Source of the DNA: Nanobdellota archaeon
Lineage (GTDB): Archaea; Nanobdellota; Nanobdellia; Pacearchaeales; GW2011-AR1
Length of the DNA stretch: 52,734 nucleotides
Assembly: GCA_038045185.1 (NCBI GenBank)
Contig: JBBSYO010000020.1
Coordinates: 1-52,734 of the forward strand
Direction of reading: 5' to 3'
Part shown: positions 4,288 through 44,872 of the stretch, piece after piece
Numbering within the stretch: the stretch's first letter is position 1
Layout: the number at the start of each line of letters is the position of its first letter
The notes under the pieces: generated by a model
The model's input: the letters and a program-made list of their open reading frames with translations, nothing else
Databases searched by the model: none
What the model was told of the DNA's origin: nothing
Position numbers and translations under genes: made by a program

Positions 4288-5348
4288 TACTCATTCTCCA
4301 ATCCTTCAAGAATTACCTTTTGGATATTCTCTGAAGAGTTATCTTTCGAAATCTTTATTTCGAATGGATTTGTTTCTTGCGCAACAGATTCTAATTCTTC
4401 GATATAGGACTTATAATTCATTTCCTTAAAATTGAGATTCAATTCTCTTATTTGTTGAAACAATTGTTTATTATCTTTATCAATAAATTCTTCCGAATCT
4501 TTAAATGAAGTAAAGGTTGTAAGAGTATCCCAAAGCTGATTCAATGTACCCTTAATTATCTCTAAATTCTGAATTTCATTTTTTTTGTTTAATAGAGCTA
4601 TTTGAGAATTGCTAATGAAATTTTCAAAATCGAAATAAAACTTTTCTAATTTTAATGGATAGTTCAATGATAAATCTAACAATGCTCTTTGAATGTCTGC
4701 GTTTATATCTTTATTTGTGTCCTTATTTATTTTGTGCAGTAAGAATAATCTTGCTAAATTTTCCTTAGCCGAATAAAACTTCATGTCATATTTTTGATAT
4801 TGATATTCTCTCTCTTGGTAAGCAATACCTGTATGTTTTTTATCTTTCAATATTTCTTTAATACACTTAATAATATCTAATTTTTCTTTAGGTTCTTCAA
4901 TCATACTCAAGATGTTTTGATTACTTGAATCAAAACTGGCACAGGTAGTCATGCCATAATGAAAGTTTAAAATAGGAAGATTAAGTTTGCAAGATTTTAT
5001 CACGTCTACGGCTATTTTTTGCAGAGCCGTTTTTGATAAGTCTGTCCCCTTTTCTTTTTTCCATTCTTTTTCAATTTCACTTAAAATATAAAGAGTTTTT
5101 GTCCTTATTTCTTTACTAAATGGAATACTATAATATACGGGATCATCAGTCCTTCTATAAACTTTCATTTTATCGGTACTTAAAATTTCATTCACCGCAC
5201 CGTCTTCTTTTAGTTTTTCTAAATAACTATTTGTTGTTGGCCAGTTAGAACCAACTTTATTTGCGATCTCGTTAATTCCCTTAGGTCCTTCAAATAGGAA
5301 ATCCAAAATTTCTTTTTTTATCTGGCTGGATGTTTTTCTAATTGTCAC
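4287..5348 (-). CDS. winged-helix (MarR/ArsR-like N-terminus) protein, 353 aa, otherwise unknown
   Basis: N-terminal ILDFLFEGPKGINEIANKVGSNWPTTNSYLEKLKEDGAV resembles a wHTH. Coupled to the downstream PIN-like ORF. Confidence 0.45.
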   Translation of the reverse strand: MTIRKTSSQIKKEILDFLFEGPKGINEIANKVGSNWPTTNSYLEKLKEDGAVNEILSTDKMKVYRRTDDPVYYSIPFSKEIRTKTLYILSEIEKEWKKEKGTDLSKTALQKIAVDVIKSCKLNLPILNFHYGMTTCASFDSSNQNILSMIEEPKEKLDIIKCIKEILKDKKHTGIAYQEREYQYQKYDMKFYSAKENLARLFLLHKINKDTNKDINADIQRALLDLSLNYPLKLEKFYFDFENFISNSQIALLNKKNEIQNLEIIKGTLNQLWDTLTTFTSFKDSEEFIDKDNKQLFQQIRELNLNFKEMNYKSYIEELESVAQETNPFEIKISKDNSSENIQKVILEGLENE

Positions 5349-5500
5349 AAGAAATCACCCCTTTTCATAGCTATTTAACCCTTTCTTTGTTTATAAAACT
5401 TACTAAGGTAGGCGATATACTTAACAATCCTTGAACAACAAAGTTTAAATACCCTTTATTGTTCAGAACCAAGGCTTTCAAAAAAGGCTAAAAAAATAAA

Positions 5501-5752
5501 ATGACAATATCTCGTAAAGTTAAGCGCGTCATCGATGGAGACACCTTTCAAACATACAGGAAAGTAAATGGAAGCAACTATGTTAGACTTCCGGGAGTAA
5601 ATGCTCCTGAGTTGCATCAGTTTGGAGGCAGACAAGCCAGAGATAGACTAAAGCGACAAATTCAAGGCAAGGTTGTAACGTTGCAACCTGTTGGCAGGTC
5701 ATATAATAGGGTAGTTGCGAGGGTCAGACAGAATCGGAGGCTTGTTAGATAA
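5501..5752 (+). CDS. miniature staphylococcal-nuclease (SNase/thermonuclease)-like protein
   Basis: VIDGDTF...VRLPGVNAPE...GR..NRVVARV follows the SNase core pattern (V.DGDT, RL.G.DAPE, YGR). Only 83 aa, so the usual C-terminal helices are absent. Confidence 0.6.
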   Translation: MTISRKVKRVIDGDTFQTYRKVNGSNYVRLPGVNAPELHQFGGRQARDRLKRQIQGKVVTLQPVGRSYNRVVARVRQNRRLVR

Positions 5753-5940
5753 TGGTTCAAAAATTATTTGGATTAGGTTTAGGAGCAACAGGAACAGCCG
5801 CAATATTGATAGTGGGCGGAATACTGGTCACCCAATTTGCTTCAGAGGGTTTAGGGGAATTTGCCATATTTGGGGGAATCATGTTAGCGTTAATCTTTGG
5901 AGGGTTAGGTGTTTTAGGCATTCTAAGGAGGTTGCTTTAA
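5752..5940 (+). CDS. small two-TM glycine-rich membrane peptide
   Basis: 62 aa with two hydrophobic G/A/L/I-rich segments. The start overlaps the stop of the SNase-like ORF (taATGg). Confidence 0.4.
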   Translation: MVQKLFGLGLGATGTAAILIVGGILVTQFASEGLGEFAIFGGIMLALIFGGLGVLGILRRLL

Positions 5941-6195
5941 ATGATAGAAGAGAGAAAAGCAGAGGAGCTTATAGATGACCGAAACAAGTGGAAAATTTAT
6001 TTTGATTTAGAAATTCCAAACGCTGGATTAAGCATAAATAATAGAGGTGATTCAAGTGTTTTGGTTAAATTTACAATTAATCGCAAAGAGAATAATCGTT
6101 TATCTAATGAAGATATTGAGAAACTAAAGAACGATTTGAAAGATTTGGGAAAATTCAGAATAGTTAAACAAGGAAAAGAGTTATTGGAGAAATGA
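5941..6195 (+). CDS. hypothetical soluble protein (84 aa)
   Basis: ORF starts the nucleotide after the preceding stop. Charged, no motif recognised. Confidence 0.35.
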   Translation: MIEERKAEELIDDRNKWKIYFDLEIPNAGLSINNRGDSSVLVKFTINRKENNRLSNEDIEKLKNDLKDLGKFRIVKQGKELLEK

Positions 6196-6196
6196 A

Positions 6197-6388
6197 ATGC
6201 CTGGGGATGTAAACAATAAGATAGTTATTGGATTAGAGTCAACAATATTTTTAGTCTCTTTAATAATAGTCATCTTGCATAAGGTAGGAAATTTGTTTAT
6301 TCCGTGGGTCACACCCATATCTTGGTTAATTTTCTTAGGGACAGTTGGTTATTTTATAATTAGGATGATACAGAATATTAACCGTTAA
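6197..6388 (+). CDS. small two-TM membrane peptide
   Basis: 63 aa with two hydrophobic helices. Starts 1 nt after the preceding stop. Confidence 0.4.
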   Translation: MPGDVNNKIVIGLESTIFLVSLIIVILHKVGNLFIPWVTPISWLIFLGTVGYFIIRMIQNINR

Positions 6389-7695
6389 TTACTAAAACTC
6401 TCTTGTAAAACTGACTCCACCAGCCTTTCCGAATTTTCTTGGTTTTCTTTAACTTGTTTTTCAAGTTCATCGCACAAAGCCATTAGCGTGTCGACTTTTT
6501 CAACGATACGTTTTTGCTCGGCAAGGGGCGGAAGCGGAACTTTTAGATTGCTTAGTGCAACTCCATTAACGTTTGGTTGTCCCGTGCCCATAGATTCTTC
6601 AAATAATTGTTGCCAATACAAACTAGAACCGAGAAATAACTTAACGTACGCGGGATTTATTGTCTTATTCGGAATTGCTCTAATCAAGTACGAAGCGAAA
6701 ACAGCTTTAACGTTGACATTCTTGACCATATAGGACTTTCCAATTGTTCCTCCGGTTCGGGCAATTAAAATATCGTTTTCGTTTAATAAGTATTTTTCAG
6801 ATTCTGAATTATCTATTTGACAACTTGGAACTTCTAACCAGTTAACTTTATCATTTTGAATATCTGTTATTCTCAACAGCCTTATGCCCTTTGTATTGTG
6901 GACTGCGGAAGCAGTATAGCCGTAATGAATTCTTTGGCAAACCTCCCCTAGTTTCGTCCATTCCCATCCCTTCGGCAACCCATAAGGCTTTTCCTCATCA
7001 GAGATTGGAGCAAGTGGCTTATCATTTCTGATCTTACCATCTTTGATGAGTCTGTCTTTTTCTGTCTTAATTTTCTTTAACAACTCTGACGCTGGCTCGT
7101 CTTGCGGGTCTTGCTGAACAAGCTTGCCTTGCACGGCGTCTTGGAGGATGCGCTGACGGAGTTTGGAGATATAAGATTCGTTTAAGTTATCAATCTCGTC
7201 TAATTTGGTTACTTTTTCAGAAATAGAATTTATTTTATTTCTGATTTTTACTTGCATCTCTAAATCAGGCAATTTTATCTCTAACGGAAGAAATTTATTA
7301 GGTTTTAGCTCTGTTTTAATTCCGCCTTTAATCTGGCTATTTATTGCCTCTTTGAAATTTTTACTTTTTAAGAAAGTCTTGAAGTATTCGATGTCTATTC
7401 TAGATTCATCAAACAAATAAGCTGAATAATGTATTGTGGCCAAAATGTCTTCTTTACCTTGATAAACTGAAACTGCCCCTTTCTCAACATTAATACCAGA
7501 AATTACCAAATCTCCTTTCTTTATCAATATCATATCAGTGTTTGTTGGCTTATCTGTTAAGTGTATTTCTCCTGAGAAATCAATTTTGTTTAACCTTCTC
7601 AAATTCATTCTATTTGCTTCTAAGGGTTTTATTCTACTTTCTCTTTCTTTTAAGAATGAGGAAATTTTAATTTTCTTCCAATTGAACATTGTCAA
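6385..7695 (-). CDS. hsdS: type I restriction-modification specificity subunit (HsdS)
   Basis: 436 aa with two variable halves separated by conserved helical spacers. The C-terminal PLPPLAEQKRIVEKVDTLMALCDELE and central LPDLEMQVKI match HsdS conserved regions. Confidence 0.85.
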   Translation of the reverse strand: MTMFNWKKIKISSFLKERESRIKPLEANRMNLRRLNKIDFSGEIHLTDKPTNTDMILIKKGDLVISGINVEKGAVSVYQGKEDILATIHYSAYLFDESRIDIEYFKTFLKSKNFKEAINSQIKGGIKTELKPNKFLPLEIKLPDLEMQVKIRNKINSISEKVTKLDEIDNLNESYISKLRQRILQDAVQGKLVQQDPQDEPASELLKKIKTEKDRLIKDGKIRNDKPLAPISDEEKPYGLPKGWEWTKLGEVCQRIHYGYTASAVHNTKGIRLLRITDIQNDKVNWLEVPSCQIDNSESEKYLLNENDILIARTGGTIGKSYMVKNVNVKAVFASYLIRAIPNKTINPAYVKLFLGSSLYWQQLFEESMGTGQPNVNGVALSNLKVPLPPLAEQKRIVEKVDTLMALCDELEKQVKENQENSERLVESVLQESFSN

Positions 7696-7735
7696 AAAAC
7701 TCCATTATTAAAAATATTAAATAATATTTTCATCT

Positions 7736-8095
7736 TCAGATTTCCTTCAAAGATAATCTTTGAGTTTTTTCCATTTTAATTAAGTCTGTGATTTCTTTAT
7801 CAACTATGCCTTTAATTATTGCAGAATTAAATCCCATGTAGTTTATCATTGAATACTTGTTGTAAATGTCTTTTTGTTTCATTAAATCAATTAGATCTGT
7901 TTTGTCTTCTGGATAAACTACTTTATCATATTCTTTAATTGAACATTTCATCTTTGAGCCAAACAAAAGACTTGTGTTCTTTTGTTTTGCGAGTTCAATA
8001 ATTTTAGTTTTTAGCTCTTCTTCTTTTGCTTCTATTTCTTTCTTTAAAGATTGGAGCTTTTCATATTCATCAACTAAACCATTGTCATTACTCAT
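7736..8095 (-). CDS. hypothetical protein (119 aa, N-terminal coiled coil)
   Basis: ORF in the hsdM...hsdS operon. 8-nt overlap with the upstream ORF and 40-nt gap to the hsdS start. Confidence 0.4.
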   Translation of the reverse strand: MSNDNGLVDEYEKLQSLKKEIEAKEEELKTKIIELAKQKNTSLLFGSKMKCSIKEYDKVVYPEDKTDLIDLMKQKDIYNKYSMINYMGFNSAIIKGIVDKEITDLIKMEKTQRLSLKEI

Positions 8096-8585
8096 TTTTA
8101 TCCTTATAAAATTTATCTAAAGCCATCTTTCCAAATTTAGGATTTTTTTTGATTTCTTCTTCAATTCCCTTAATATGTTCGTCCATTATTTTTTGGTGCA
8201 TTACAAATCCTAAGCCAAATAAGTAATCTGCAGTCTCTTTTTTACTTAAATTTTTAACTTCTTTCTTAACATCATTCCATATTTTGTTATCAAATATCTC
8301 TCTAGCTATGGAAAATAACTCATCGTCTAATTTTGAAATTTCTTCTTCTGTATCCTCGCCGTAGATTTCTTTATGCATCTCGGCAGGGGTCTTGTTTGTG
8401 TCTGTTTGCTTTCGTTCATTATTGTACCAATTCATGAAGTCGTTCATTTGCTTTTCTATTTCTACTGATGTTTGTGCTTCTTTATTATTTTTAAGATATT
8501 CTTCAAAAGCCATTTCAATTTCCCTTTTTGCTGGTTTGAATGCGTCTCTTTCTTTATTTTCTTTATTGTTCATGTTAGTAGTCAT
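8088..8585 (-). CDS. hypothetical charged protein (165 aa)
   Basis: ORF in the hsdM...hsdS operon; no motif recognised. Confidence 0.4.
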   Translation of the reverse strand: MTTNMNNKENKERDAFKPAKREIEMAFEEYLKNNKEAQTSVEIEKQMNDFMNWYNNERKQTDTNKTPAEMHKEIYGEDTEEEISKLDDELFSIAREIFDNKIWNDVKKEVKNLSKKETADYLFGLGFVMHQKIMDEHIKGIEEEIKKNPKFGKMALDKFYKDKNE

Positions 8586-8614
8586 TTTTGTTGAAATTTG
8601 AAGGTATTTTATAA

Positions 8615-9496
8615 TTATCCGTGGTCAATTTTCCCCTCATATTTGAAGATATGGGCAAACTTGGCATTTTCACCAATTAATAATTTCAATTGTTCTCTAA
8701 CCCTTGACTCTGTTTCTCCAGAAGTAATAATTATATCATTAAAAACTGCAAAATAACCTGTGTTTACTTTTAATTCTAAAAGCCTTTTTCTTATTTTTCT
8801 TGCATTTGACTTGCTTAACTCTTGATGATAAACGCCCGTTAGATTAGGTTCTTTTTTTAATAGTCTATGTATTTCATCCCAATTTCTCATGCGATTATTC
8901 TCATTCTTTAAATAAAATCTTAGCAGTTCTTCGCTAGATTCTTCTTTCTCATTTAGTGGTTCATCTAAAGATTCAATTAATCCAAACTTGCTTTTTGCTT
9001 TAATATAATCTCTAGATAAAGCATCTACCATTCCCCTTCCAAATGTCATGTTATACCCGTTTAAAATACTTGAATAAACGATTTTTCCACAGAATGGAAA
9101 AAGAATTGTTTTTGCCATATACGGTTCAAATGGCAAAATATCCCTTATTTCGTCTTGCAACCCATAAACATGATATGCTTTTGATTCGTCGCCTAAGAAA
9201 ACAGATTTCTCTTTTTCATGCAAGATGTAAAAATCTCCTTTAACCAGTTTTTTCCATTGACTCACTATGTTTAACTCGGTTTGATTAAATCTTAACGGAT
9301 TTTCTTTAACAAATTCATCAACCATGTGCGGGTAACTAGATAATTTATCATCAAGTCTGGCTACCTCTTCAGCATATTGCCCATTAAAATCTGGAGTTGT
9401 AAGATTCTTTATTATATGGAACTTTTTATTTATGAAATGATATAATCCGTCACGTAACTTATAAAATAACTTAACTTCTTCATTGGATAGTTTCAT
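8615..9496 (-). CDS. hypothetical protein (293 aa)
   Basis: Largest embedded ORF in the hsdM...hsdS operon. 4-nt ATGA-type overlap with the upstream ORF; no motif recognised. Confidence 0.45.
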   Translation of the reverse strand: MKLSNEEVKLFYKLRDGLYHFINKKFHIIKNLTTPDFNGQYAEEVARLDDKLSSYPHMVDEFVKENPLRFNQTELNIVSQWKKLVKGDFYILHEKEKSVFLGDESKAYHVYGLQDEIRDILPFEPYMAKTILFPFCGKIVYSSILNGYNMTFGRGMVDALSRDYIKAKSKFGLIESLDEPLNEKEESSEELLRFYLKNENNRMRNWDEIHRLLKKEPNLTGVYHQELSKSNARKIRKRLLELKVNTGYFAVFNDIIITSGETESRVREQLKLLIGENAKFAHIFKYEGKIDHG

Positions 9497-9876
9497 TTAA
9501 TCACCTTATCCAATTTTAGTAGCCTTCTATATTCTTCATTTATTAAATCCCACCAGTTTTCTGCAGTGTCTACTTGTTCATCTTCCCTTGTAGAAAGCCA
9601 ATAGGTTTCAAAATTATAGGCTCTGATTTCTCCAATATAAATTATTTTATTACTATTTAATACGGCATAAATAGTAGCGATTGCCGGTGCGGGCCAGTCA
9701 ATACAGTCATCAAGTTCGCTTTTATCAATGCTATAACAGACATATAATCTTTGTTTTATCTTTTTTGTATTGGGTAGTTTAGGCACATTTTTTAATAATT
9801 CTTCTGCCCTACTCTCTTTTAATGCCCATCTTTGTAAACTTCTTGCTCTCTGAAGACTAATTTTATATCGGCTCAT
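9493..9876 (-). CDS. hypothetical protein (127 aa)
   Basis: ORF in the hsdM...hsdS operon; no motif recognised. Confidence 0.4.
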   Translation of the reverse strand: MSRYKISLQRARSLQRWALKESRAEELLKNVPKLPNTKKIKQRLYVCYSIDKSELDDCIDWPAPAIATIYAVLNSNKIIYIGEIRAYNFETYWLSTREDEQVDTAENWWDLINEEYRRLLKLDKVIK

Positions 9877-9885
9877 TTTTACCTC

Positions 9886-10347
9886 CTAAATAATTTCCCA
9901 TTCCCAATAATCCTCCATATATCTAGTATATCTAAATAGGTCAAGTTCTTTTGCGTAATTTAAATATTTTTTATAGTCTCTTTGCTGTAAAAAATATGAG
10001 ATCTGTGCTGCAGAAATAGTATTATCAAATGTTTTCTTAATAGTAATAGAGTTGTTAAAGTTTTGCATTGCCATCTTTTCATTAGTATTAAATAAAAGTA
10101 GACCCATTAGATAATAGGCTTCCCAATGGTTTGACCATTTTTTGATAATCTTCTCCGTTAACTGAAAATCTTCTTTTTCTTTATTAACATGTGAAAGTGC
10201 TCCTGCTTTAATCAGAAGAGCATCTATGTTTTCAACGTCTTTTTTAAGAATTTCATTGCATAATTCTATGGCTTTATTCTCATTTTCTGAATAATTATGA
10301 TAATATCCTGCTTTATTTAGTAGCTTAGAAATATTTTTGTCATCCAT
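9886..10347 (-). CDS. TPR-like helical repeat protein (153 aa)
   Basis: Repeated A/Y/L-spaced helical pairs (KAIELCNEILKKD...ALLIKAGAL..., WEAYYLMGLLLF) suggest TPR. 8-nt overlap with the upstream ORF. Confidence 0.4.
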   Translation of the reverse strand: MDDKNISKLLNKAGYYHNYSENENKAIELCNEILKKDVENIDALLIKAGALSHVNKEKEDFQLTEKIIKKWSNHWEAYYLMGLLLFNTNEKMAMQNFNNSITIKKTFDNTISAAQISYFLQQRDYKKYLNYAKELDLFRYTRYMEDYWEWEII

Positions 10348-10597
10348 GTTTTATTTCTCCTAACATCTTCCAGAGATTATCATCTATTGTTTTGTCTTTT
10401 TTATTTTCTTTTATCGACTTTATTATTTTATCATAGAAACTAGGATAATTCACTTTTATCCTGTTTAGTTTATCTTTAATGTGTTCTAGTTTACATTGAT
10501 TTGAACAAAATAACAATGCTTTTTCATCCGAGAATTGAGGCGATAGCCAGATGCCTTCGTTTGCTTGCTTTTTGCAGGTTTTACATGTTTCACCCAT
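10340..10597 (-). CDS. TRASH/YHS-like zinc-ribbon protein (85 aa)
   Basis: C5-x2-C8-x22-C31-x3-C35 fits the TRASH spacing C-x2-C-x19-22-C-x3-C. Starts 2 nt after the hsdM stop. Confidence 0.45.
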   Translation of the reverse strand: MGETCKTCKKQANEGIWLSPQFSDEKALLFCSNQCKLEHIKDKLNRIKVNYPSFYDKIIKSIKENKKDKTIDDNLWKMLGEIKHG

Positions 10598-10599
10598 TC

Positions 10600-12036
10600 T
10601 TATTTTTCTCCTTGAATTTGACTAATAATTTCTTGAGTTCTTTTGATATTTGCTTGTATTCTTTCAATAATCTCTTCTTTAGAAAGCTCCCTTTCTGCTT
10701 CTGGTTTTGTGGGGTTGTTTATGTCCAAATTATAATTTCTTTTGATGATTTCATCTTTTGAAACCTTCCAGCATAAATGTTTAAATTTTTCATTTTCGCG
10801 GTTTGTCCACCATTCTTTCTCTAATTGAAACTCTTCATGACGAATTGGTTTTGTTTTATTATAAGTTACGGCGTCTTGGGGCAATGGATGCTCAAAGTAC
10901 CACACGTCTTTTGTTCCTCGTGAGTCTTTTTCGAAGAACAAGAGGTTGGTACGAATACCGGTGTAGGGGCTGAATACTCCATTGGGCAGACGTACTATAG
11001 TATGAAGATTAAATTCACTTAGCAACTTTTCCTTTATTCGCGTCTTTACACCCTCCCCAAACAAGAAGCCGTCAGGCAAAACTAGACCGCACTTCCCTCC
11101 ATCACGCAAGAGCTTCATAATAAGAACGAGAAACAAATCGGCTGTCTCTCTTGTTTTAAACTCGGCAGGGAAGTTGTTTTCGATACCGGTTTCTTCAGCT
11201 CCACCAAACGGAGGATTAGTGACCACAATATCGACCATATCTTTTGAGGTGTAATCTATTATAGGTCTTGATAACGAGTTATCATGGCGAATGTTAGGTA
11301 CTTCAATATCATGTAAAATCATGTTAGTCATACCCAACAAATGAGGCAAGGGTTTCTTCTCTATTCCCCTTATAGTCTTCTCTAGAATTTTTTGTTCTTC
11401 TACACTCTTTACATCTTTCTTAAGATGGTTAATAACCGATATAAGAAAGCCACCCGTTCCACAGGCAGGGTCCAGTACGATGTCTCCTAATTGAGGGTTA
11501 ACCATGTCAACGATGAATTGGGTAACAGGTCTTGGAGTGTAAAATTCTCCTGCGCTTCCCGCACTTTGCAACTCTTTTAAGATTGTTTCATAAATATCGT
11601 TGAATAAGTGTCTATCTTCAGCGCTTGTAAAATCAATTTCATTTATTTTGTTAATGACTTGGCGAATAAGGATGCCTTTTTTCATATAATTGTAGGCGTC
11701 TTCAAAGACTTGTTTTACAATATATCCCCTTTGGTCTGTCTTTTCATCAAGCTTCAGATTTTTTAGGGTTTTGAATAGATCATCATTGATAAAATCAAGC
11801 AGTTCGTCTCCTGTTATTCCTTCGGGATTCTCCGCCCACTTTCTCCACCTAATTTTTTCTGGTAAAGGACTTTTGTAGTTTTCATCTTCTGCTTCCCTCT
11901 CTTTTTCCATAGAGTCAAAAACTTTCAAGAAGATCATCCAAACCATTTGAGAGATACGTTGAGCATCTCCATCTACTCCTGCATCTTTACGCATGATGTC
12001 TCTTACTGATTTTACTATGTTGCCTAGATGAGCCAT
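10600..12036 (-). CDS. hsdM: type I restriction-modification N6-adenine DNA methyltransferase (HsdM)
   Basis: 478 aa. Motif I DPACGTGGFL, motif IV VVTNPPFGG, and an HsdM N-terminal helical domain. Confidence 0.92.
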   Translation of the reverse strand: MAHLGNIVKSVRDIMRKDAGVDGDAQRISQMVWMIFLKVFDSMEKEREAEDENYKSPLPEKIRWRKWAENPEGITGDELLDFINDDLFKTLKNLKLDEKTDQRGYIVKQVFEDAYNYMKKGILIRQVINKINEIDFTSAEDRHLFNDIYETILKELQSAGSAGEFYTPRPVTQFIVDMVNPQLGDIVLDPACGTGGFLISVINHLKKDVKSVEEQKILEKTIRGIEKKPLPHLLGMTNMILHDIEVPNIRHDNSLSRPIIDYTSKDMVDIVVTNPPFGGAEETGIENNFPAEFKTRETADLFLVLIMKLLRDGGKCGLVLPDGFLFGEGVKTRIKEKLLSEFNLHTIVRLPNGVFSPYTGIRTNLLFFEKDSRGTKDVWYFEHPLPQDAVTYNKTKPIRHEEFQLEKEWWTNRENEKFKHLCWKVSKDEIIKRNYNLDINNPTKPEAERELSKEEIIERIQANIKRTQEIISQIQGEK

Positions 12037-12058
12037 AGATAAAACAGAAAACTCTAAC

Positions 12059-12074
12059 TTAATAACCTTTTTAT
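12059..12074. promoter_or_regulatory. promoter-like motif TTAATAACCTTTTTAT (copy 1 of 3)
   Basis: Same 16-17 nt recur at 18299-18315 and 21686-21702, where they sit about 25 nt upstream of a CDS start and of tRNA-His. Here it lies in the radC/hsdM intergenic region. Confidence 0.45.
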
Positions 12075-12080
12075 CAGAAG

Positions 12081-12752
12081 TTAAAGTCTCTTCTGCTTAT
12101 CCCGCCAACTCCAATACTCTTCTTTCCCTATAACCACATGATCGACAACATTTATGTCAAGAGAGTTGCCTGCATTGATTATTCTTTTTGTAATATCTAA
12201 GTCTTCCCTTGAAGGAGTTGGGTCTCCGGAAGGATGATTATGAATCAAGACTATTTTAGAAGCTGAATTCTTCAGCACGGGCTTGAATATCGTCTTGGCA
12301 TCAAAAATAGTTGAATCCATAGTTCCCTTAGAAATCAACTGCTCGCCGATAATGTGATTCTTTGTATTAAGCATTAAAACAATAAAATGCTCTTGCTTCT
12401 CATCCTTCAATCTATCATGAAACAAATCAAAGACATCCTTGGCACAAGTTATCTTTTTAACTGGGTGTTTGGCTTGTGAGCGCCTCTTGCCTAATTCGGC
12501 CATGGCAAGCAATTGCATAGCTTTGCTGGGACCGATACCTTTGATGCTTTGAAGTTCAACTAAAGAACATTCGAATAACTTATCTATGCCATGTTCTGCA
12601 ATAAGTCGATTTGACATATCAATAACGTTCTCGCCTTTACTTCCTGTCCTCAAGATTATAGCGAAAAGCTCGGCATCGCTTAGCGCTTGCGGACCATGTT
12701 TTAGGAAACGCTCTCTCGGCCTGTTCTGCTTCGGCATGTCATGGATTCTCAT
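12081..12752 (-). CDS. radC: RadC-like JAB/MPN domain protein
   Basis: 223 aa. N-terminal MPKQNRPRERF, an HhH-like IKGIGPSKA, and the JAMM motif HNHPSGDPTPS. Confidence 0.9.
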   Translation of the reverse strand: MRIHDMPKQNRPRERFLKHGPQALSDAELFAIILRTGSKGENVIDMSNRLIAEHGIDKLFECSLVELQSIKGIGPSKAMQLLAMAELGKRRSQAKHPVKKITCAKDVFDLFHDRLKDEKQEHFIVLMLNTKNHIIGEQLISKGTMDSTIFDAKTIFKPVLKNSASKIVLIHNHPSGDPTPSREDLDITKRIINAGNSLDINVVDHVVIGKEEYWSWRDKQKRL

Positions 12753-12782
12753 GGCTATGAATAGAAAAAATAGTTAATAATT

Positions 12783-14045
12783 TTAACTCAATCCCTCATT
12801 TATTTTCTTTAAATTCCAAAGAATAACTTTTTGCAATGTTTGCAGGAGTTTTTCATCTTCTCTTTTTTTTGATCCTTTTGTATACCCCATATATTCATCC
12901 AATAATCCAAACGGGATGTCGAAAATTGGAATGCCTCTTGATTGCAATAAATGAAATGTTATTAATCTCGTTGTTCTGCTGTTTCCATCTGCAAACGGAT
13001 GAATGTGCTGGAATTCATTGTGGAAATAAACGGCAAAATTTAAAATTTCCCTAATAGATGATTTTTCTTTTCTGACAAACTCATCATACTTCTCAAATAA
13101 AGCATCTAATTCTCTTTTGATATTCTCTGCTTTAGTGATTTTAAAATCAGGATTCCCTTTAATATAGACTTCATCTGTTCTTATTTTGCCTGCAATTTTC
13201 GGAACATTTCTCATAGCTATTCCATGATAATTAAGAACAGACGCGATATTCAAAACCTTCTTTTCCGCGCTATCTTTCAGCATTTGCAGGATTGCTTCCT
13301 GATAATTCTTTACTTCATCAACATCCAGGCTCTTTAGATTGCCCGGGATAACCTTGTCCTGCAGTATTTTGAAAGTCTCTGATAATGTTATAGGATTTCC
13401 CTCTAATGAAAGGCTATGATAAACAAAAGAAATTTCAAAATCCCTTACAACTTTTCTGTATCCAGCCTCATCTTTTTTTCTTAATCTCTTAAAAATATTT
13501 AATTCCCTTTCTATCTCTTTGCTGTAAACATGGGTGCTTTCTGTTATAACTTCATGCTTATAACCAAAGTAAATAAGAAGATTGTTCAAAAGGATATTAT
13601 AGAATATCTTTGCCCTCAAGGGTTTTCTTGAAATAATAAGGACCAATCCAAATCTGTTTAATATTTCCAGGTACTTTTTAAAAGTTCTTGGGTGAGTATC
13701 CGCGTCTTTGGGGGTAATCTCCTCTTTTTGCAAAGCTTTGCTCAAAAATGCCGCAAAATTCTTGTCAAGTAAATAATTGTAACTAACATTGTTTTTAAGA
13801 CAATGCTGAATTATTCCATATAAGATTTCTGCCTTTTTGTTCATGTCTGCTTCAAAGCCATATTCAGTTTTTCTAAGGAGACCAAGTGCAACCAACTCTC
13901 TAAGCTGTTTATGTATTGCGTGATAATCTCCCTCAGATTTATTAAACCCCCTAACAACATCCACAGGCTTCATTGGGGCTCTGTTCTTATAGATTAATTC
14001 AAAAATGTCATATTTGGTGACCATAACAATACAGACTCTTTTCAA
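12783..14045 (-). CDS. Fic/DOC family protein with N-terminal wHTH-like region
   Basis: Fic motif HPFADGNSRTTR (HxFx[D/E]GNxRxxR). 420-aa ORF; the true start may be the internal MVTKYD. Confidence 0.85.
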   Translation of the reverse strand: MKRVCIVMVTKYDIFELIYKNRAPMKPVDVVRGFNKSEGDYHAIHKQLRELVALGLLRKTEYGFEADMNKKAEILYGIIQHCLKNNVSYNYLLDKNFAAFLSKALQKEEITPKDADTHPRTFKKYLEILNRFGLVLIISRKPLRAKIFYNILLNNLLIYFGYKHEVITESTHVYSKEIERELNIFKRLRKKDEAGYRKVVRDFEISFVYHSLSLEGNPITLSETFKILQDKVIPGNLKSLDVDEVKNYQEAILQMLKDSAEKKVLNIASVLNYHGIAMRNVPKIAGKIRTDEVYIKGNPDFKITKAENIKRELDALFEKYDEFVRKEKSSIREILNFAVYFHNEFQHIHPFADGNSRTTRLITFHLLQSRGIPIFDIPFGLLDEYMGYTKGSKKREDEKLLQTLQKVILWNLKKINEGLS

Positions 14046-21725: not shown

Positions 21726-21797
21726 GGCGGTTGTAGTGTACCGGTAGCACACCAGCTTGTGGCGCTGTTAGAGTGGGTTCAACTCCCACCTTCCGCT
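21726..21797 (+). tRNA. tRNA-His (GTG) with encoded G-1; two U-U mismatches in the acceptor stem
   Basis: D-arm GTGT/GCAC, anticodon loop TTGTGGC, T-arm GTGGG-TTCAACT-CCCAC. Acceptor GCGGTTG versus CTTCCGC mismatches at 5:68 and 6:67. Confidence 0.6.
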
Positions 21798-21826
21798 TTC
21801 ATTGAGAAAAGGAGTTGAACAAGAGA

Positions 21827-21898
21827 GGGTTCAACTACGTGAACTCGAAGAGTTAACGTTCCCGCGGAACAGAGTTCTGCGAGGACCCACCTTCCGCT
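21827..21898 (+). other. second copy of the last 23 nt of tRNA-His, split by a 49-nt hairpin-rich insert
   Basis: gggttcaact (21827-21836), then a 49-nt insert (GAACTC...GTTCC-cgc-GGAAC...GAGTTC nested stems), then cccaccttccgct (21886-21898). Confidence 0.6.
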
Positions 21899-39560: not shown

Positions 39561-39690
39561 GAAAATCGTTGAAATTTCCTACCGAACCGGAGCAAGCTCC
39601 GCGGTATTCGGAAATTTCTACTCCACGATTTTCTAATTAGAATTTTTACTCCACAGCAAGCTGTGGGGTATTCAACCCAAAAATTCTAAT
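39561..39690 (-). repeat. 130-bp double-hairpin element, copy 2 (inverted relative to copy 1)
   Basis: Starts 2 nt after the pheT stop and ends overlapping the ATG at 39689. 126/130 identity to copy 1 after reverse-complementing. Confidence 0.9.
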
Positions 39691-40897
39691 GAAAATGAAT
39701 AGCGACTTACAACTCATGCGTAAAAAACATAAAATAACAATTATCGTCGCCTCCATTATTCTTCTGCTGGGCTTGACCTTCTTCGGCGGCTTCTATGTCT
39801 CATCTAAAAAGCAGGAAGCGAGCATACAGCATCCAGAGCAAAATGCAGGCATAATAACAGAAGAACCGATAATTGAGTCTCAAATAATAAACTTGAGTAT
39901 TGCACAGTTGACTCTTGATTCTGAGGATATAGAAGGTGGCTACATTCTAAAGAGGCACTCTTCTGGACTTATAAAAGAAGATAACAACGAATACTTTATT
40001 AAAAAATTTGATAAAGAGACTCTAGAGGTTAAAGAATTTAGAACTCTCTACATAGAGACGTATAAGTTTAGCACAATAGAAGAAGCCGACAAAGAGTTTG
40101 CTAAACTGGATGAAAATATCAGGAACCCTAATTTGAGATTTGAACCGATTGAATTAGAGCAGATTGGTGATGCCAGCAGATATTACAAAACAGATTATCT
40201 TTATAATTTCTATTCATTTGAAGGTTATCTGGGATTAGTAAAATTAAACAATATCATATTTAAAATAGGTATTTCTGGCATTTCAAACTCGATTAACAAA
40301 GAAGAATTAACATATTACTCAAAGAAGCTTATAGAGAAAACCGAGAAAGATTCGGCAGACAATTTTGAGATCTCAGCAACACAGAAGGCGCCCCCCAAAG
40401 AGAATCTGAAAATATCCTTACAGATTCGTAATCAAAGCTCTGGTACAAGCAACAGATGGAAAGAACAAGATAAAATAATTTTAGCTTGGGACTATAACTT
40501 TATCGATAACGAATTCAAGATAAGACAGAACACAGATGATAGCGGTAATACACTCTGGGTTCACTATTTTTATATGTCCCAGAATAAAGAGTTCTTGATA
40601 TTAGACACATGTCTAAACAATTCTCAAAACGAGAGCATTTCTCTCGTCTCCAAATACTTGCTGTTGCGAGATAGTCTAGGAAATATCTATACCGCCTTTG
40701 CAAGAGAAGATGAAATAAACATTCTCAGAAATAACAGAAAGGTCTGCGTGAAATATATCTTTCCTGTATTAAAAAAAGATAGATTTCCGAAGATTAAAGA
40801 GTTTAATCTTGAAATAAAAGACGAGAGAGGAACTACCTTGGGAAAAATCGGTGTCGCGGCTAGCGATTTGAGTAGATACAGACAAGAGAACAACTAG
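39689..40897 (+). CDS. membrane-anchored hypothetical protein (402 aa), AT-rich
   Basis: N-terminal TM ITIIVASIILLLGLTFFGGFYV; no motif recognised. Confidence 0.5.
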   Translation: MKMNSDLQLMRKKHKITIIVASIILLLGLTFFGGFYVSSKKQEASIQHPEQNAGIITEEPIIESQIINLSIAQLTLDSEDIEGGYILKRHSSGLIKEDNNEYFIKKFDKETLEVKEFRTLYIETYKFSTIEEADKEFAKLDENIRNPNLRFEPIELEQIGDASRYYKTDYLYNFYSFEGYLGLVKLNNIIFKIGISGISNSINKEELTYYSKKLIEKTEKDSADNFEISATQKAPPKENLKISLQIRNQSSGTSNRWKEQDKIILAWDYNFIDNEFKIRQNTDDSGNTLWVHYFYMSQNKEFLILDTCLNNSQNESISLVSKYLLLRDSLGNIYTAFAREDEINILRNNRKVCVKYIFPVLKKDRFPKIKEFNLEIKDERGTTLGKIGVAASDLSRYRQENN

Positions 40898-42329: not shown

Positions 42330-42634
42330 TTGACTGTAGTTACGTTATTTAAGCCCCAATCGAGGTTCACGACATTCCCGGTTATCTGCGCGAAATTACC
42401 AAAGAAAGCCCCCAACCAAGTCGCATACACCCTGCCAAAAGAAACAAACCCGTCAAATGACGCGAAATTCGGATCACTTACTGCTCCAACATAAATCACA
42501 GTAAACACAAAAAAGAGTGCGGCGCCGACAAGAATGTACGACCAGATATTCTGTCCAATGTTAGTTGCTTTTACAAAGACAACCAACGCAGCCATCACCA
42601 TAATAACCAATATCCAGCCCACAGCCATACACAT
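42326..42634 (-). CDS. membrane protein (102 aa, about 3 TM)
   Basis: Hydrophobic segments. Confidence 0.45.
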   Translation of the reverse strand: MCMAVGWILVIMVMAALVVFVKATNIGQNIWSYILVGAALFFVFTVIYVGAVSDPNFASFDGFVSFGRVYATWLGAFFGNFAQITGNVVNLDWGLNNVTTVK

Positions 42635-42702
42635 TTAGGAACAAGTTTGTATAAATATCTTTCGAGCAAGATTTTTAAGCCCTGAAAACACCCTATAACC
42701 CT

Positions 42703-42775
42703 AGCCCCGTCGTATAGTGGTCAAGTATTCGGGCCTCTGGCGCCCGAGACCCAGGTTCGAATCCTGGCGGGGCTA
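42703..42775 (+). tRNA. tRNA-Pro (TGG)
   Basis: AGCCCCG...CGGGC-CTCTGGC-GCCCG...CCAGG-TTCGAAT-CCTGG-CGGGGCT-A. TATA gatttttaag about 28 nt upstream. Confidence 0.9.
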
Positions 42776-42838
42776 TAACCAATTGAGCGAAGCGAAATGG
42801 TTTAGAACCGACAGCACTAAGAACCACAGTTCTTTCAG

Positions 42839-42850
42839 CTGGCGGGGCTA
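42839..42850 (+). repeat. 12-nt duplicate of the tRNA-Pro 3' end
   Basis: ctggcggggcta is identical to 42764-42775, separated from it by a 63-nt hairpin-containing spacer. Confidence 0.7.
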
Positions 42851-42909
42851 TCCATTTTCCAAAAGGCTTAACACAACTCTTTTAAACCGTCTTCCGCTCT
42901 CCCCTTCAT

Positions 42910-42934
42910 GCCCTTGTAGTCTAGTGGTCAAGGA
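42910..42934 (+). pseudogene. displaced tRNA 5' fragment (acceptor 5' strand plus D-arm) resembling tRNA-Glu
   Basis: GCCCTTGTAGTCTAGTGGTCAAGGA versus tRNA-Glu GCTCTTATCGTCTAGATGGTCAAGGA. TATA-like ctcttttaaacc about 27 nt upstream. Confidence 0.65.
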
Positions 42935-42966
42935 AACTATTTATAGTAGCGACGCATTTAGAATAA

Positions 42967-43863
42967 GTGAGAATTCGCTTAGAAAAAGGAAAACAGCGAG
43001 AGTTAATTGAACAGGCTAAAATGAATTTAACCTGGAATCAATTAGGCAAAAGAGTGAATCTAAATTCTCATTATCTTCAAAATGAATTAAGAAATGAACA
43101 AAAACTCATTTCAGAAGAGCTATTTAATCATTTATTATCATTGACAAAGAAAGATTATTCATGCTTTATCGCGGAAAAGCTCGCAGATAACTGGGGAAGA
43201 TCAAAGGGCGGGAAAAATTCTAAGGGCAATACTAAAGTTATTTCTCCTTCGAAGAAGAATATTTATTTAGCCGAATTAATCGGAATCATACTGGGAGACG
43301 GACATGTTGAGAAACGCGTAAATGACACAACCAGGTGTTATACTCTTAAAATTGCAGGTCATATAAAAAATGACTGCGCGTATTTATCTTATTACGTGAG
43401 CAACCTCATTAAGCAGATATATGGAGAATTTCCTTCTATCCGTAAAGATGCCAATTATGGTGTAATGTGGGCTGTCCTGCACGGCAGAGGTGTAGTGGAA
43501 GATCTAACAAATAAGGGCTTGGGAACAGGCAACAAGAAAAAGAATAATCAAGGAATTCCCGATTGGATTAAAGAAAACAAATCCTTTCTTAAAGTTTGCC
43601 TTCGTGGTCTTATTGACACAGACGGATCAATCCATCGGATTTCAAAGAAAAATAAAAATCTCAGAATTTGTTTTACCAGTTACATTCCTCAATTACTAAG
43701 TGATGCCAGAGAAGCATTTATTTGCGCAGAATATTTTCCTTCAAAAATAATTAAAGATAATCAGTTCTTCATTACGCGTAAAGAAAACATTGCTCGTTAT
43801 GTGAAAGAAATAGGATTTGCCAACGAAAAACATTTAAAAAGACTTGAAAGATTAGGTAGCTAA
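42967..43863 (+). CDS. double-motif LAGLIDADG homing-endonuclease-like protein
   Basis: Motifs LAELIGIILGDGHV and LRGLIDTDGSI. GTG start about 25 nt after TATA ctatttatag. The stop abuts the first base of tRNA-Glu. Paralogous to 40993-42006. Confidence 0.8.
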   Translation: MRIRLEKGKQRELIEQAKMNLTWNQLGKRVNLNSHYLQNELRNEQKLISEELFNHLLSLTKKDYSCFIAEKLADNWGRSKGGKNSKGNTKVISPSKKNIYLAELIGIILGDGHVEKRVNDTTRCYTLKIAGHIKNDCAYLSYYVSNLIKQIYGEFPSIRKDANYGVMWAVLHGRGVVEDLTNKGLGTGNKKKNNQGIPDWIKENKSFLKVCLRGLIDTDGSIHRISKKNKNLRICFTSYIPQLLSDAREAFICAEYFPSKIIKDNQFFITRKENIARYVKEIGFANEKHLKRLERLGS

Positions 43864-44033
43864 GCTCTTATCGTCTAGATGGTCAAGGACGACGCCCTCT
43901 CGAACGCCGAGTGTTACATCGTCGAGATTATACACTCAGTCCCTCTGCGGACAGGCATTCCTATTATCGGGCTTGCATTCTTGCAAGCCCTTGGAGAACG
44001 GCGTAAACCCGGGTTCGAATCCCGGTGGGAGCA
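43864..44033 (+). tRNA. tRNA-Glu (CTC) with an intron of about 95 nt in the anticodon loop
   Basis: GCTCTTA-TC-GTCT...GGAC-G-ACGCC-CTCTCG / intron / GGCGT-AAAC-CCGGG-TTCGAAT-CCCGG-TGGGAGC-A. The intron contains the 9-bp hairpin GGGCTTGCA/TGCAAGCCC. Confidence 0.8.
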
Positions 44034-44143
44034 TCAGGCTGTTGAATGAGATGAAACAGCAAGCCACTGACGGTATGAGAACTTCAGTTCGAATGAACCG
44101 GCAGGGGCGTGATGTTAGTATGACATAATCATCGGATATTGAA

Positions 44144-44872
44144 TTATTTTTTAGCTATTTTCCAAAGGAGCTCAAAATGTTTCCTGTAGCTTTCAGCAAC
44201 AGCCTTATCCTTTATTAAGAAAGCGTAAGGATTTTCTGTAAATACAGCAATGGCCACGCAATCTCCAACTATGACGGTTTCCTGGAATTGAGCAAATTCC
44301 TTATCCACGTATCTTACTGAAGTGAGTTTATTCTTTTCTATCTCGGCGCCCCCTATATTTTTTACAGAAGCGTCAAACACCTGACGTGAAGGCAATTTAT
44401 TTTCAATCCTCCGTTTATGTAGATTTAACCACCAGGTAAGACCCATTATCTCGGCTGTTATCGGACCGCCGCCAAACGTATTGTATTCTCCTTTTGCATT
44501 AATCATAATCTCGTAAACCTCTTTTATCCCCCTAATTCCCTTGTAGACGCTCGCCATCTCTTCCTTAACTGCATTATTTTGTCTTGCTCGTAACTCGGGC
44601 AGGATTTCTTCAAACTTCTTCTTTTTATCTTCAATATAGGTAAAGAATTGTTCTGGATCAGTAGCTTGGTATACCTTTCTCTTGCCCTCTAATATAAAAT
44701 TGATAAGACTCTTCTCTATAAGTGAATTCAAATCACGGTGAACGGTAGAGTTGGGCAAACTCGATTTTTCTAAAATCGCTCCTGCAGTTGAAGAACCCAA
44801 TCCCAAGAGAGTCAAATATACTTTTATTTCTGTATGCGTCAATCCCAAATCTTCTAGTATCCTAGTATCCAT
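44144..44872 (-). CDS. TrmB-family transcriptional regulator
   Basis: N-terminal LEDLGLTHTEIKVYLTLLGLGSSTAGAILEKSSLPNSTVHRDLNSLIEKSLI (TrmB wHTH). Confidence 0.8.
   Translation of the reverse strand: MDTRILEDLGLTHTEIKVYLTLLGLGSSTAGAILEKSSLPNSTVHRDLNSLIEKSLINFILEGKRKVYQATDPEQFFTYIEDKKKKFEEILPELRARQNNAVKEEMASVYKGIRGIKEVYEIMINAKGEYNTFGGGPITAEIMGLTWWLNLHKRRIENKLPSRQVFDASVKNIGGAEIEKNKLTSVRYVDKEFAQFQETVIVGDCVAIAVFTENPYAFLIKDKAVAESYRKHFELLWKIAKK

Follow-up and report, generated by a model that had tools for sequence, protein, structure and literature searches.

The stretch of DNA considered here, called the window below, is the 52,734-nt contig JBBSYO010000020.1 of a Nanobdellota archaeon (assembly GCA_038045185.1), and on its plus strand a gene for a LAGLIDADG protein ends exactly where a gene for tRNA-Glu(CTC) begins. 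Judged from its sequence, this locus probably arose when a free-standing LAGLIDADG homing-endonuclease gene invaded the D-arm of a resident tRNA-Glu(CTC) gene and restored that gene by partial duplication. The reading is carried by the anatomy of the locus, the empty sites in related genomes, the association of the protein family with tRNA 5′ ends, the selection acting on catalytic residues, and a tract of probable recent transfer; these features themselves are observed. The product consists of the old promoter, old tRNA positions 1–25, the cassette, new positions 1–25, and tRNA positions 26–73. The cassette itself apparently comprises its own promoter, made of a transcription factor B recognition element (BRE) and a TATA box, the endonuclease open reading frame (ORF), and, fused to the latter, a substitute tRNA start of about 25 nt. 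Neither an intron nor an intein surrounds the gene, which is located within its presumed target region, and the tRNA is kept whole without splicing. The elements of the locus are the following:

42877–42888, plus strand: TATA-like ctcttttaaacc / CTCTTTTAAACC, putative promoter of the resident tRNA-Glu, about 25–30 nt 5′ of the displaced fragment

42910–42934, plus strand: displaced 5′ fragment GCCCTTGTAGTCTAGTGGTCAAGGA, corresponding to positions 1–25 of the resident tRNA-Glu

42916–42931, plus strand: D-arm box GTAGTCTAGTGGTCAA within the displaced fragment

42935–43889, plus strand: insert of 955 nt that is absent from the empty site (promoter, endonuclease gene, and substitute 26-nt tRNA 5′ end)

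42937–42946, plus strand: putative TATA box of the endonuclease gene, ctatttatag (CTATTTATAG), about 25 nt 5′ of the GTG

42967–43863, plus strand: double-motif LAGLIDADG ORF of 298 aa, with GTG start at 42967 and TAA stop at 43861–43863

43831–43841, plus strand: TATA-like CATTTAAAAAG inside the ORF (K-H-L-K-R codons), centred about 27 nt 5′ of tRNA position 1

43864–43889, plus strand: substitute tRNA 5′ end (positions 1–25 and one extra D-loop base), arriving with the endonuclease gene

43864–44033, plus strand: functional-looking tRNA-Glu(CTC), with exon 43864–43902, intron 43903–43998 (boundaries ±1 nt), and exon 43999–44033

An earlier, sequence-only reading had described a TATA-like sequence, a tRNA 5′ fragment, a second TATA, a LAGLIDADG ORF, and an intron-containing tRNA-Glu(CTC). 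The ORF call and the reading of positions 42600–44400 found each of them on the plus strand, where that reading had placed it, in the order resident tRNA promoter, tRNA 5′ fragment, TATA, LAGLIDADG ORF, and tRNA-Glu(CTC). The GTG start is supported because homologues begin with M-R-I at the equivalent position, and position 1 of the tRNA (43864) is immediately 3′ of the stop codon. The motif CYCTTTTAAA is present at equal spacing 5′ of endonuclease-free tRNA-Glu genes of other genomes (L014, L016, L094, and L121; the compared loci are given as L numbers). The A/T-rich TATA of the endonuclease gene, preceded by the BRE-like AGTAA/ATAAA, is found at the equivalent position in about 30 homologous loci. 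The sequence TTTAAAAAG is located at −31 to −23 from the tRNA start in the loci L001, L002, L005, and L007 of the Glu clade and in the window. Within the ORF, CATTTAAAAAG is a candidate promoter for the restored tRNA; the second LAGLIDADG locus of the window, at tRNA-Thr, has no such TATA-like element inside its ORF.

The completeness of the tRNA behind the ORF is supported by several lines of data. ARAGORN, with introns allowed, reports tRNA-Glu(ctc) at 43864–44033 with an intron of 96 nt, a 7-bp acceptor stem closes the cloverleaf into which the precursor folds (−69.1 kcal/mol, z = −4.46), and the intron is bordered by a 3-4-3 bulge-helix-bulge at 37/38, all of which bears out the sequence-only reading. 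Neither default ARAGORN nor Rfam, at gathering and permissive thresholds, detects this intron-containing gene; Rfam also matched no RNA family in the insert, and a group I intron was not found there. The substitute 5′ end pairs perfectly with the 3′ acceptor strand TGGGAGC. Long introns at the same canonical position (89–144 nt) are homologous in tRNA-Glu(CTC) genes of L001, L014, L016, L085, L087, L089, L093, L094, and L121, from genomes of Pace/Woesearchaeota type, and share the conserved GUCGYUGAGA ... CAGUCC..GGACAGGCA and a terminal hairpin. Rfam has no family for this long intron, which may encode a small RNA.

The displaced fragment agrees with the first 26 nt of the adjacent tRNA in 22 of 26 columns (three mismatches and one gap), slightly better than the earlier estimate of about 20 of 25. 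The imperfect direct repeat formed in this way (42910–42934 and 43864–43889, 25 and 26 nt) has a z of 7.5 and was equalled in none of 200 shuffles of the upstream region. The fragment is identical in 25 of 25 positions to the endonuclease-free tRNA-Glu of L014 and L016, and in 24 of 25 to that of L121. It is the 5′ end of the former resident tRNA-Glu and no decayed copy of the adjacent tRNA, and it is the tRNA end touching the ORF that is the foreign, substitute piece. The fragment is intact despite saturated synonymous sites, even when the closest relative is compared. Selection on the full fragment, as could be argued from neutral decay, is not claimed, as a recent independent capture from a conserved resident tRNA would look alike.

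What was inserted can be defined with a metagenomic contig, L121, which is syntenic to the window (PheRS, tRNA-Thr, two small ORFs, tRNA-Gln, and tRNA-Glu, in this order), with flanks of 74.6% nucleotide identity over 737 nt. In L121 both tRNA-Thr and tRNA-Glu are without an endonuclease gene. Its intact tRNA-Glu begins with GCCTTTGTAGTCTAGTGGTCAAGGA, followed directly by CGACGCCCTCTCG. Because the window matches this gene through position 25 (24/25, 42910–42934) and then again from position 26, where the identical CGACGCCCTCTCGAACGCCGAG starts at 43890, the insert is delimited as the 955 nt of 42935–43889. When the restored tRNA is compared with that of L121, there are 5 differences in the 26 nt of the 5′ end and 4 in the 7 nt of the 3′ acceptor strand, the latter including two compensatory pairs, 3:70 and 7:66. 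Over the other 40 exon positions there is no difference, and the intron is identical in 83 of 96 positions (86%). In the more distant L014 and L016, tRNA-Glu is free of the endonuclease gene and has a promoter like that of the window, and an endonuclease gene is found at tRNA-Gln. Among the syntenic genomes, the occupied sites are Thr and Glu in the window, Gln only in L014, L016, L019, and L025, Glu only in L008 and L089, and none in L121. Occupied and empty alleles of one conserved site, as expected of a homing element, are therefore available for comparison. In L121 (reverse complement, 4000–4323), a 107-aa ORF lies between tRNA-Gln and tRNA-Glu, where the window has only 133 nt.

The same order of fragment, TATA, ORF, and tRNA is found on the minus strand of the window at tRNA-Thr, where the following elements are located:

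42060–42041, minus strand: displaced 5′ fragment of the resident tRNA-Thr, GCCTCTGTAGCTCAGGAAGC

42018/42006–40993, minus strand: paralogous LAGLIDADG gene, with probable start ATG at 42006 and stop TAG inside the tRNA-Thr D-loop

41013–40942, minus strand: complete tRNA-Thr(GGT), a foreign allele (Rfam 72.7 bits)

The two LAGLIDADG proteins had been taken for paralogues, and they do align over their full length, with 26% identity and E = 5e-13. The Thr fragment and the tRNA-Thr(GGT) of L121, which is free of an endonuclease gene, are identical over the first 15 nt, and this is exactly the point at which homology between window and L121 sets in again. The tRNA-Thr of the window differs from that of L121 by a compensatory change at 6:67 and by an entirely different T-stem. 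Relatives of the Thr-locus protein end in ASVAQW* or ASVAQR*, which is the translated 5′ end of tRNA-Thr. Beside the 3′ end of tRNA-Thr, a 402-aa ORF without a Pfam match (39689–40897, plus strand) lies in DNA that is partly of low G+C content (GC; 0.30–0.38). Because this ORF is absent from L121 and replaced by an 823-aa Laminin_G_3 gene in L119, the 3′ flank of tRNA-Thr is a variable region.

Relatives of the Glu-locus protein are numerous (694 at E ≤ 1e-3), nearly all are about 300 aa long, and nearly all come from metagenome-assembled genomes of Pacearchaeota, Woesearchaeota, or Nanoarchaeota type. Gene neighbourhoods were compared for 83 loci, that is 80 from species-representative genomes, two further loci, and the window. 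In 70 of the 83, a tRNA gene of the same orientation begins between −60 and +150 nt from the ORF stop. The sequence-only reading had argued from the two loci of the window that such an architecture reflects a mechanism rather than chance, and had named its absence from other genomes with homologues as fatal to this view; the layout turns out to be common in them and is the rule. The commonest stop codon is the TAG of the tRNA D-loop, with an overlap of 10–16 nt. In at least 47 of the 120 best relatives, the C-terminus A-P/S/L-x-V/I/E is the translated tRNA 5′ end (e.g., GCC CCT ATC GTC TAG, read as APIV*). Other relatives end in M-P-L*, which is the tRNA start in another frame, and some ORFs read on to the anticodon. 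Distant relatives of the Thr-locus protein (P0188–P0219) enter tRNA 3′ ends in antisense, with sequences such as AGFEPAT and ESNPRPAAYKA.

The phylogeny of endonucleases against their targets, which had been proposed as a check, shows a grouping by tRNA. In a neighbour-joining tree of 49 proteins, clades follow the identity of the abutted tRNA. The Glu(CTC) clade, including the window, is nested among Gln clades, a Val clade is separate, a second Glu-type clade is found in Diapherotrites and Iainarchaeum, and the Thr protein is far outside. In L014, tRNA-Gln is identical to tRNA-Glu from position 8 to 35, so a switch of target from Gln to Glu is easy to imagine. Several paralogues can be present at different tRNAs of one genome, as in the window, in L023 with L062, and in L036 with L073. 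Relatives from the candidate phyla radiation (CPR), namely Saccharibacteria and Parcubacteria (L052, L056, L066, and L068–L084), abut tRNA-Ser or tRNA-Tyr, and a 5′ fragment is present upstream in at least L079 and L081.

In 11 loci, the DNA upstream of the ORF contains a match to the tRNA 5′ end that was unequalled in 200 shuffles. Inspection by eye and anchored alignment of 31 DPANN loci revealed a D-arm-like box, TAGTnTAGTGGTCAA, covering tRNA positions 8–22, that ends 30–40 nt before the ORF start in 27 of the 31. It is located directly 5′ of the BRE-like AGTAA/ATAAA and the TATA box. The acceptor part of the fragment (positions 1–7) is recognisable, with at least 5 of 7 matches, in only 8 of the 31 loci. 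As judged from these alignments, the part of the remnant nearest the junction is preferentially retained, and the junction of tRNA remnant and cassette is homologous across the whole family. In L023 (~2430–2470), TAGCCCCGCCAGGATTCGAA, the reverse complement of the tRNA-Gln 3′ end, is located immediately 5′ of the D-arm box, and there the cassette is adjoined by an inverted tRNA fragment.

Several endonuclease-linked tRNA-Gln and tRNA-Glu genes also show an extra D-arm hairpin insertion of 25–40 nt straight after GGTCAA (L026 3395–3497, L017 2496–2604, L040 3394–3498, L030, L022, L006, and L035). Its position is that of the fragment/cassette junction, and its deletion in silico gives a normal tRNA. 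The identity that ARAGORN assigns to these genes is wrong (Ser, Thr, Val, or Ala). No such insertion was seen at the same loci in Gln and Glu genes that lack an endonuclease.

Possible signs of recent movement come from a groundwater contig of Hainich (L091; ERZ1292625, Hain-H41), which is identical to the window at 42540–44101, that is over 1,562 nt with no difference. L092 is a further Hainich contig with this genotype. The identical tract spans tRNA-Gln, the fragment, the endonuclease gene, tRNA-Glu, and 68 nt further, whereas beyond it the two sequences diverge, with 5 differences in 64 nt to the left (~8%) and about 30% to the right. Its right end, at 44101/44102, is exactly between a conserved block downstream of tRNA-Glu, considered below, and the acceptor-like tail of this block. 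The tract, which includes the endonuclease gene, indicates recent recombination or transfer. Spread by viruses was considered and rejected, as IMG/VR gave only distant LAGLIDADG relatives, of 23–39% identity.

The protein has the sequence and fold of a LAGLIDADG nuclease. The 298-aa Glu-locus product matches Pfam LAGLIDADG_3 (PF14528, 3.6e-9) and contains two motifs, LAELIGIILGDG (D111, ..GDG) and LRGLIDTDG (D219). Its AlphaFold2 model, based on 19 relatives (mean predicted local distance difference test score 90.8), comprises an N-terminal helical domain (1–72), a disordered linker (76–87), and a two-lobed core, for which AlphaFold2, Foldseek, and Pfam agree on the pseudo-dimeric alpha-beta-beta-alpha-beta-beta-alpha fold. 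Foldseek against the PDB returns PI-PfuI, I-Tsp061I, I-DmoI, I-AniI, and I-SceI (E from 1e-9 to 1e-6, probability 1.00), and also WhiA, a LAGLIDADG-derived regulator. The dN/dS against relatives is 0.06–0.3, with synonymous sites saturated. The simplest reading of these data is likely an active nuclease under purifying selection.

However, it is possible to consider the family as a domesticated LAGLIDADG protein, a WhiA-like regulator or another tRNA-gene-linked factor, with the D-arm box as its operator and the whole arrangement as an old, vertically inherited rearrangement. In addition to the match to WhiA, one relative is annotated as WhiA by its source, the strong conservation and a dN/dS far below 1 are as expected of a domesticated protein, the D-arm box keeps its spacing to the promoter also in loci that have lost the acceptor part of the fragment to decay, and the N-terminal helical domain is an addition to the nuclease core. 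Acidic residues for catalysis are missing from WhiA, whose extra domain is located at the C-terminus. In the tRNA-linked family, the relatives of the Glu- and Thr-locus proteins, 220 of 220, all have both D111 and D219. A vertically inherited factor would also sit poorly with the patchy occupancy of orthologous tRNA sites in syntenic genomes, the several paralogues at different tRNAs in one genome, the low GC of the endonuclease genes (0.30–0.38, and 0.32–0.38 for the gene at tRNA-Glu, compared with 0.40–0.48 in the flanks), and the identical gene-bearing tract in diverged strains. Autorepression via the D-arm box would be compatible with an active homing endonuclease as well, and I-TevI is a precedent for a homing enzyme that regulates itself. 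Taken together, domestication is an unlikely account of the family.

The second alternative is that the ORF is held by a very long bulge-helix-bulge intron, or that the fragment is an alternative or split 5′ exon that is spliced to the tRNA body. The D-arm insertions described above, found at the position of the fragment/cassette junction, and the nearest structural relatives of the protein, encoded in archaeal introns, would fit such a mechanism, and splits at 25/26 are known in tri-split tRNAs. However, a complete tRNA with a perfectly paired acceptor stem is already present 3′ of the ORF, the fragment has no anticodon-arm partner, and its joining to the tRNA 3′ strand would give a C3–A70 mismatch. 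The scan for bulge-helix-bulge geometries over both junctions, in which the canonical intron at 37/38 served as positive control and passed, returned one geometry, which is at chance level (1.2 expected) and joins position 16 to a point 5 nt 5′ of the tRNA, a nonsensical product. The layout is also found in CPR bacteria (L079 and L081), which are without the splicing endonuclease. A splicing arrangement is very improbable on these grounds, and the functional split or permuted tRNA that the sequence-only reading had kept in view as a way in which it could fail falls with it, given the complete tRNA, the mispair at 3:70, and the lack of a meaningful bulge-helix-bulge.

The least credible explanation is an att duplication by an integrase-type element of SSV or pNOB8 style targeting the tRNA gene: the succession of partial tRNA, insert, and reconstituted tRNA is as expected of integration (PMC3293823), a direct repeat of a tRNA part is present at both element ends (22/26 columns), and scar-like repeats of tRNA 3′ ends are located nearby (42839–42850, of Gln, and 44072–44109), but the sole ORF of the 955-nt insert is a LAGLIDADG protein by sequence and fold and no tyrosine recombinase, there is no integrase nearby in the window, and the fusion of ORF and tRNA is kept in hundreds of relatives, unlike a decaying provirus end.

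If a homing endonuclease invaded the tRNA-Glu gene, the following mechanism can be proposed. The enzyme would cut the unoccupied tRNA gene in the D-loop/D-stem region, and the occupied allele would serve as template for the repair of the break. The left homology arm would be provided by the D-arm remnant and the right arm by the tRNA body; retention of the remnant would be explained because it acts as such an arm. Transcription of the endonuclease gene would start at its own TATA and also at the stranded tRNA promoter, and that of the tRNA would result from read-through or start at the TATA-like sequence in the last codons of the ORF. Since the ORF abuts or overlaps the tRNA, maturation by RNase P would truncate the mRNA and so keep the level of the enzyme low.

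Several points weigh against the invasion of the D-arm by a homing endonuclease as described. The cut is placed in the D-loop/D-stem by the junction positions only, and the junction itself varies, from about 21/22 in most Gln loci to 25/26 at Glu and 15/16 at Thr of the window. At the Thr locus and in the acceptor stem of tRNA-Glu, replacement exceeds the 5′ end, and therefore the cassette would sometimes be the endonuclease gene with a whole tRNA. The second debatable issue is self-immunity, as the D-arm of the restored tRNA is almost unchanged compared with naive alleles. Immunity via the extra D-loop base was considered and found no support, this base being absent from the closest relative, L085. 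The same applies to C9, as TAG at positions 8–10 is present in 18 of 31 endonuclease-linked and 11 of 15 endonuclease-free tRNAs, with no significant enrichment of position-9 changes in the former. Strong purifying selection and family-wide retention are equally expected of a domesticated protein. Finally, homing could account for the identical tract shared with L091, but so could ordinary homologous recombination that merely included the gene.

A broader proposal can be put forward only tentatively, and it is rather to be doubted than assumed: that this lineage of endonucleases is a general and still active remodeller of tRNA genes in DPANN, some other archaea, and CPR, which acts by invasion of the D-arm and healing by partial duplication. 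If it is correct, remodelling yields orphan 5′ fragments with their own promoters, that is potential split-tRNA halves, as well as replaced tRNA alleles. Non-canonical D-arm introns would then arise at the invasion site and could act as immunity, and a function in cis would fall to the retained D-arm box, as a portable arm for homology or as an operator for autoregulation. Randau and Soll reportedly regarded disrupted tRNA genes as the result of an arms race with mobile elements. The same hypothesis was presented by Sugahara and Kanai (PMC3293823), and it would gain a concrete, testable enzyme.

Another feature of the resident locus is a conserved block downstream of the tRNA:

44072–44109, plus strand: conserved block GGTATGAGAACTTCAGTTCGAATGAACCGG + CAGGGGC-G, right end of the resident locus

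It consists of a 30-nt core, GGTATGAGAACTTCAGTTCGAATRAACCGG (44072–44101), and a copy of the tRNA-Glu 3′ acceptor strand with the discriminator base. The block is located 40–100 nt 3′ of tRNA-Glu(CTC) and is conserved at about 97% among genomes with differing spacers and introns; in L085 (2645–2682) it is identical in 36 of 37 positions, though synonymous sites of the neighbouring gene are saturated. It is also present 3′ of tRNA-Glu in L091–L095, including the endonuclease-free L094 and L095, both of which contain two tandem copies. In L091–L095 its acceptor-like end matches the local tRNA, whereas that of the window and L085 corresponds to the displaced fragment (GCCCTTG). Because this end complements the displaced fragment and not the adjacent tRNA, the block is regarded as part of the old resident locus. 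It folds into a 4-bp hairpin with a T-loop-like GUUCGAA loop, and could be either an unknown RNA or an att-like scar that a small integrative element has left. The view that the fragment and the T-loop-like 44086–44109 are two halves of one broken resident tRNA was rejected, given that the block is also found at endonuclease-free loci; its T-stem is disrupted, and it is present independently of the fragment.

Other repeats of tRNA 3′ parts were noticed. The last 12 nt of tRNA-Gln (CTGGCGGGGCTA; 42764–42775) are found again 62 nt 3′ of the gene (42839–42850), and the trailer behind this second copy resembles the native trailer of L121. A similar repeat is located about 100 nt 3′ of tRNA-Gln in L017 (~2681–2695). 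At tRNA-His of the window (21776–21848), the T-arm start GGTTCAACT recurs about 30 nt 3′ of the gene (21828–21836), which may be a further partial tRNA 3′ repeat. The flanks within the window are ordinary cellular archaeal DNA, with PheRS alpha and beta, TrmB, a DisA-like protein, a GTPase, and a type I restriction system. The region of this type I restriction-modification system (1303–14045), with an HsdR-like product at 1303–3642 and an HsdM-like one at 10600–12036, is of low GC (0.30–0.38).

When known systems are considered, the Glu-locus enzyme can be classed as a variant of free-standing homing endonuclease, with cleavage predicted from its sequence and fold. No description of a tRNA-linked LAGLIDADG family or of a partial-duplication strategy was found in the literature. 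The ways known for homing endonucleases to spare their hosts are self-splicing introns, inteins, and intergenic placement. A gene placed inside an essential RNA gene, with rescue at the DNA level by replacement of the displaced end, would be a third way. In part of the family the tRNA promoter is apparently written into the last codons of the ORF. As to scale, there are hundreds of DPANN members and, in addition, CPR relatives, specialised on tRNA genes. This matters also for annotation, as default tRNA finders miss such tRNAs, and the ORFs are routinely mis-called, their C-termini being translated tRNA.

The structural relatives I-DmoI, I-Tsp061I, and I-PorI share with the Glu-locus protein the monomeric double-motif fold (TM-score to target 0.73–0.76), the archaeal host, and a structural RNA as target. 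They are encoded in bulge-helix-bulge introns of rRNA, where RNA splicing preserves the host gene; unlike them, the tRNA-linked family has no surrounding intron, would rely on DNA-level rescue, and contains an extra N-terminal domain of about 75 residues. The LAGLIDADG scaffold with an additional helical domain is also seen in WhiA, from which the tRNA-linked family differs in its two invariant aspartates and the N-terminal location of this domain. The phage T4 SegB, a free-standing GIY-YIG homing endonuclease in a tRNA gene cluster (PMC2330249), is similar in that no intron or intein holds its gene, which is found beside tRNA genes; SegB cuts the endonuclease-free allele and co-converts the flanks. 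The SegB gene is located in a phage, between intact genes, and its target is not split, in contrast to a LAGLIDADG gene inside its target, with a 5′-end duplication, in cellular DPANN and CPR genomes. Elements such as SSV1 and pNOB8 likewise target a tRNA, reconstitute the gene by a partial-tRNA copy, and leave partial tRNA as a direct repeat. However, they employ a tyrosine recombinase on att sites, are many kb long and excisable, and usually carry the tRNA 3′ part, whereas the element considered here is about 1 kb, contains a nuclease gene, and duplicates the tRNA 5′ part.

The closest counterpart is the tRNA-Thr(GGU) locus of Caldiarchaeum subterraneum (Sugahara et al., 2012, PLoS One; PMC3293823), where a 5′ fragment (1–27) is followed by an insert of 1.87 kb and a complete variant tRNA, with an 813-bp ORF, read in the same direction, immediately 5′ of the tRNA. 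Both empty and occupied alleles are found there within one population, and the occupied tRNA contains an extra intron at 24/25 (PMC3293823), to which the D-arm insertions of endonuclease-linked tRNAs are a parallel. The ORF was called a putative DNA recombinase and recombination by a pNOB8-type integrase was invoked; LAGLIDADG proteins or homing were not mentioned (PMC3293823). The likeness, a fragment 5′ of a complete tRNA and an ORF just before the tRNA, is drawn from the description in that paper. In contrast to this single locus, for the Nanobdellota archaeon and its relatives the enzyme can be named, ORF and tRNA are fused, and the layout extends over the family. Whether mobile elements drive the formation of archaeal tRNA fragments, non-canonical introns, and split halves, whose origin is an old question, could be tested with a defined enzyme and natural empty and occupied alleles, and the puzzling Caldiarchaeum locus of 2012 may be explained by a LAGLIDADG family too.

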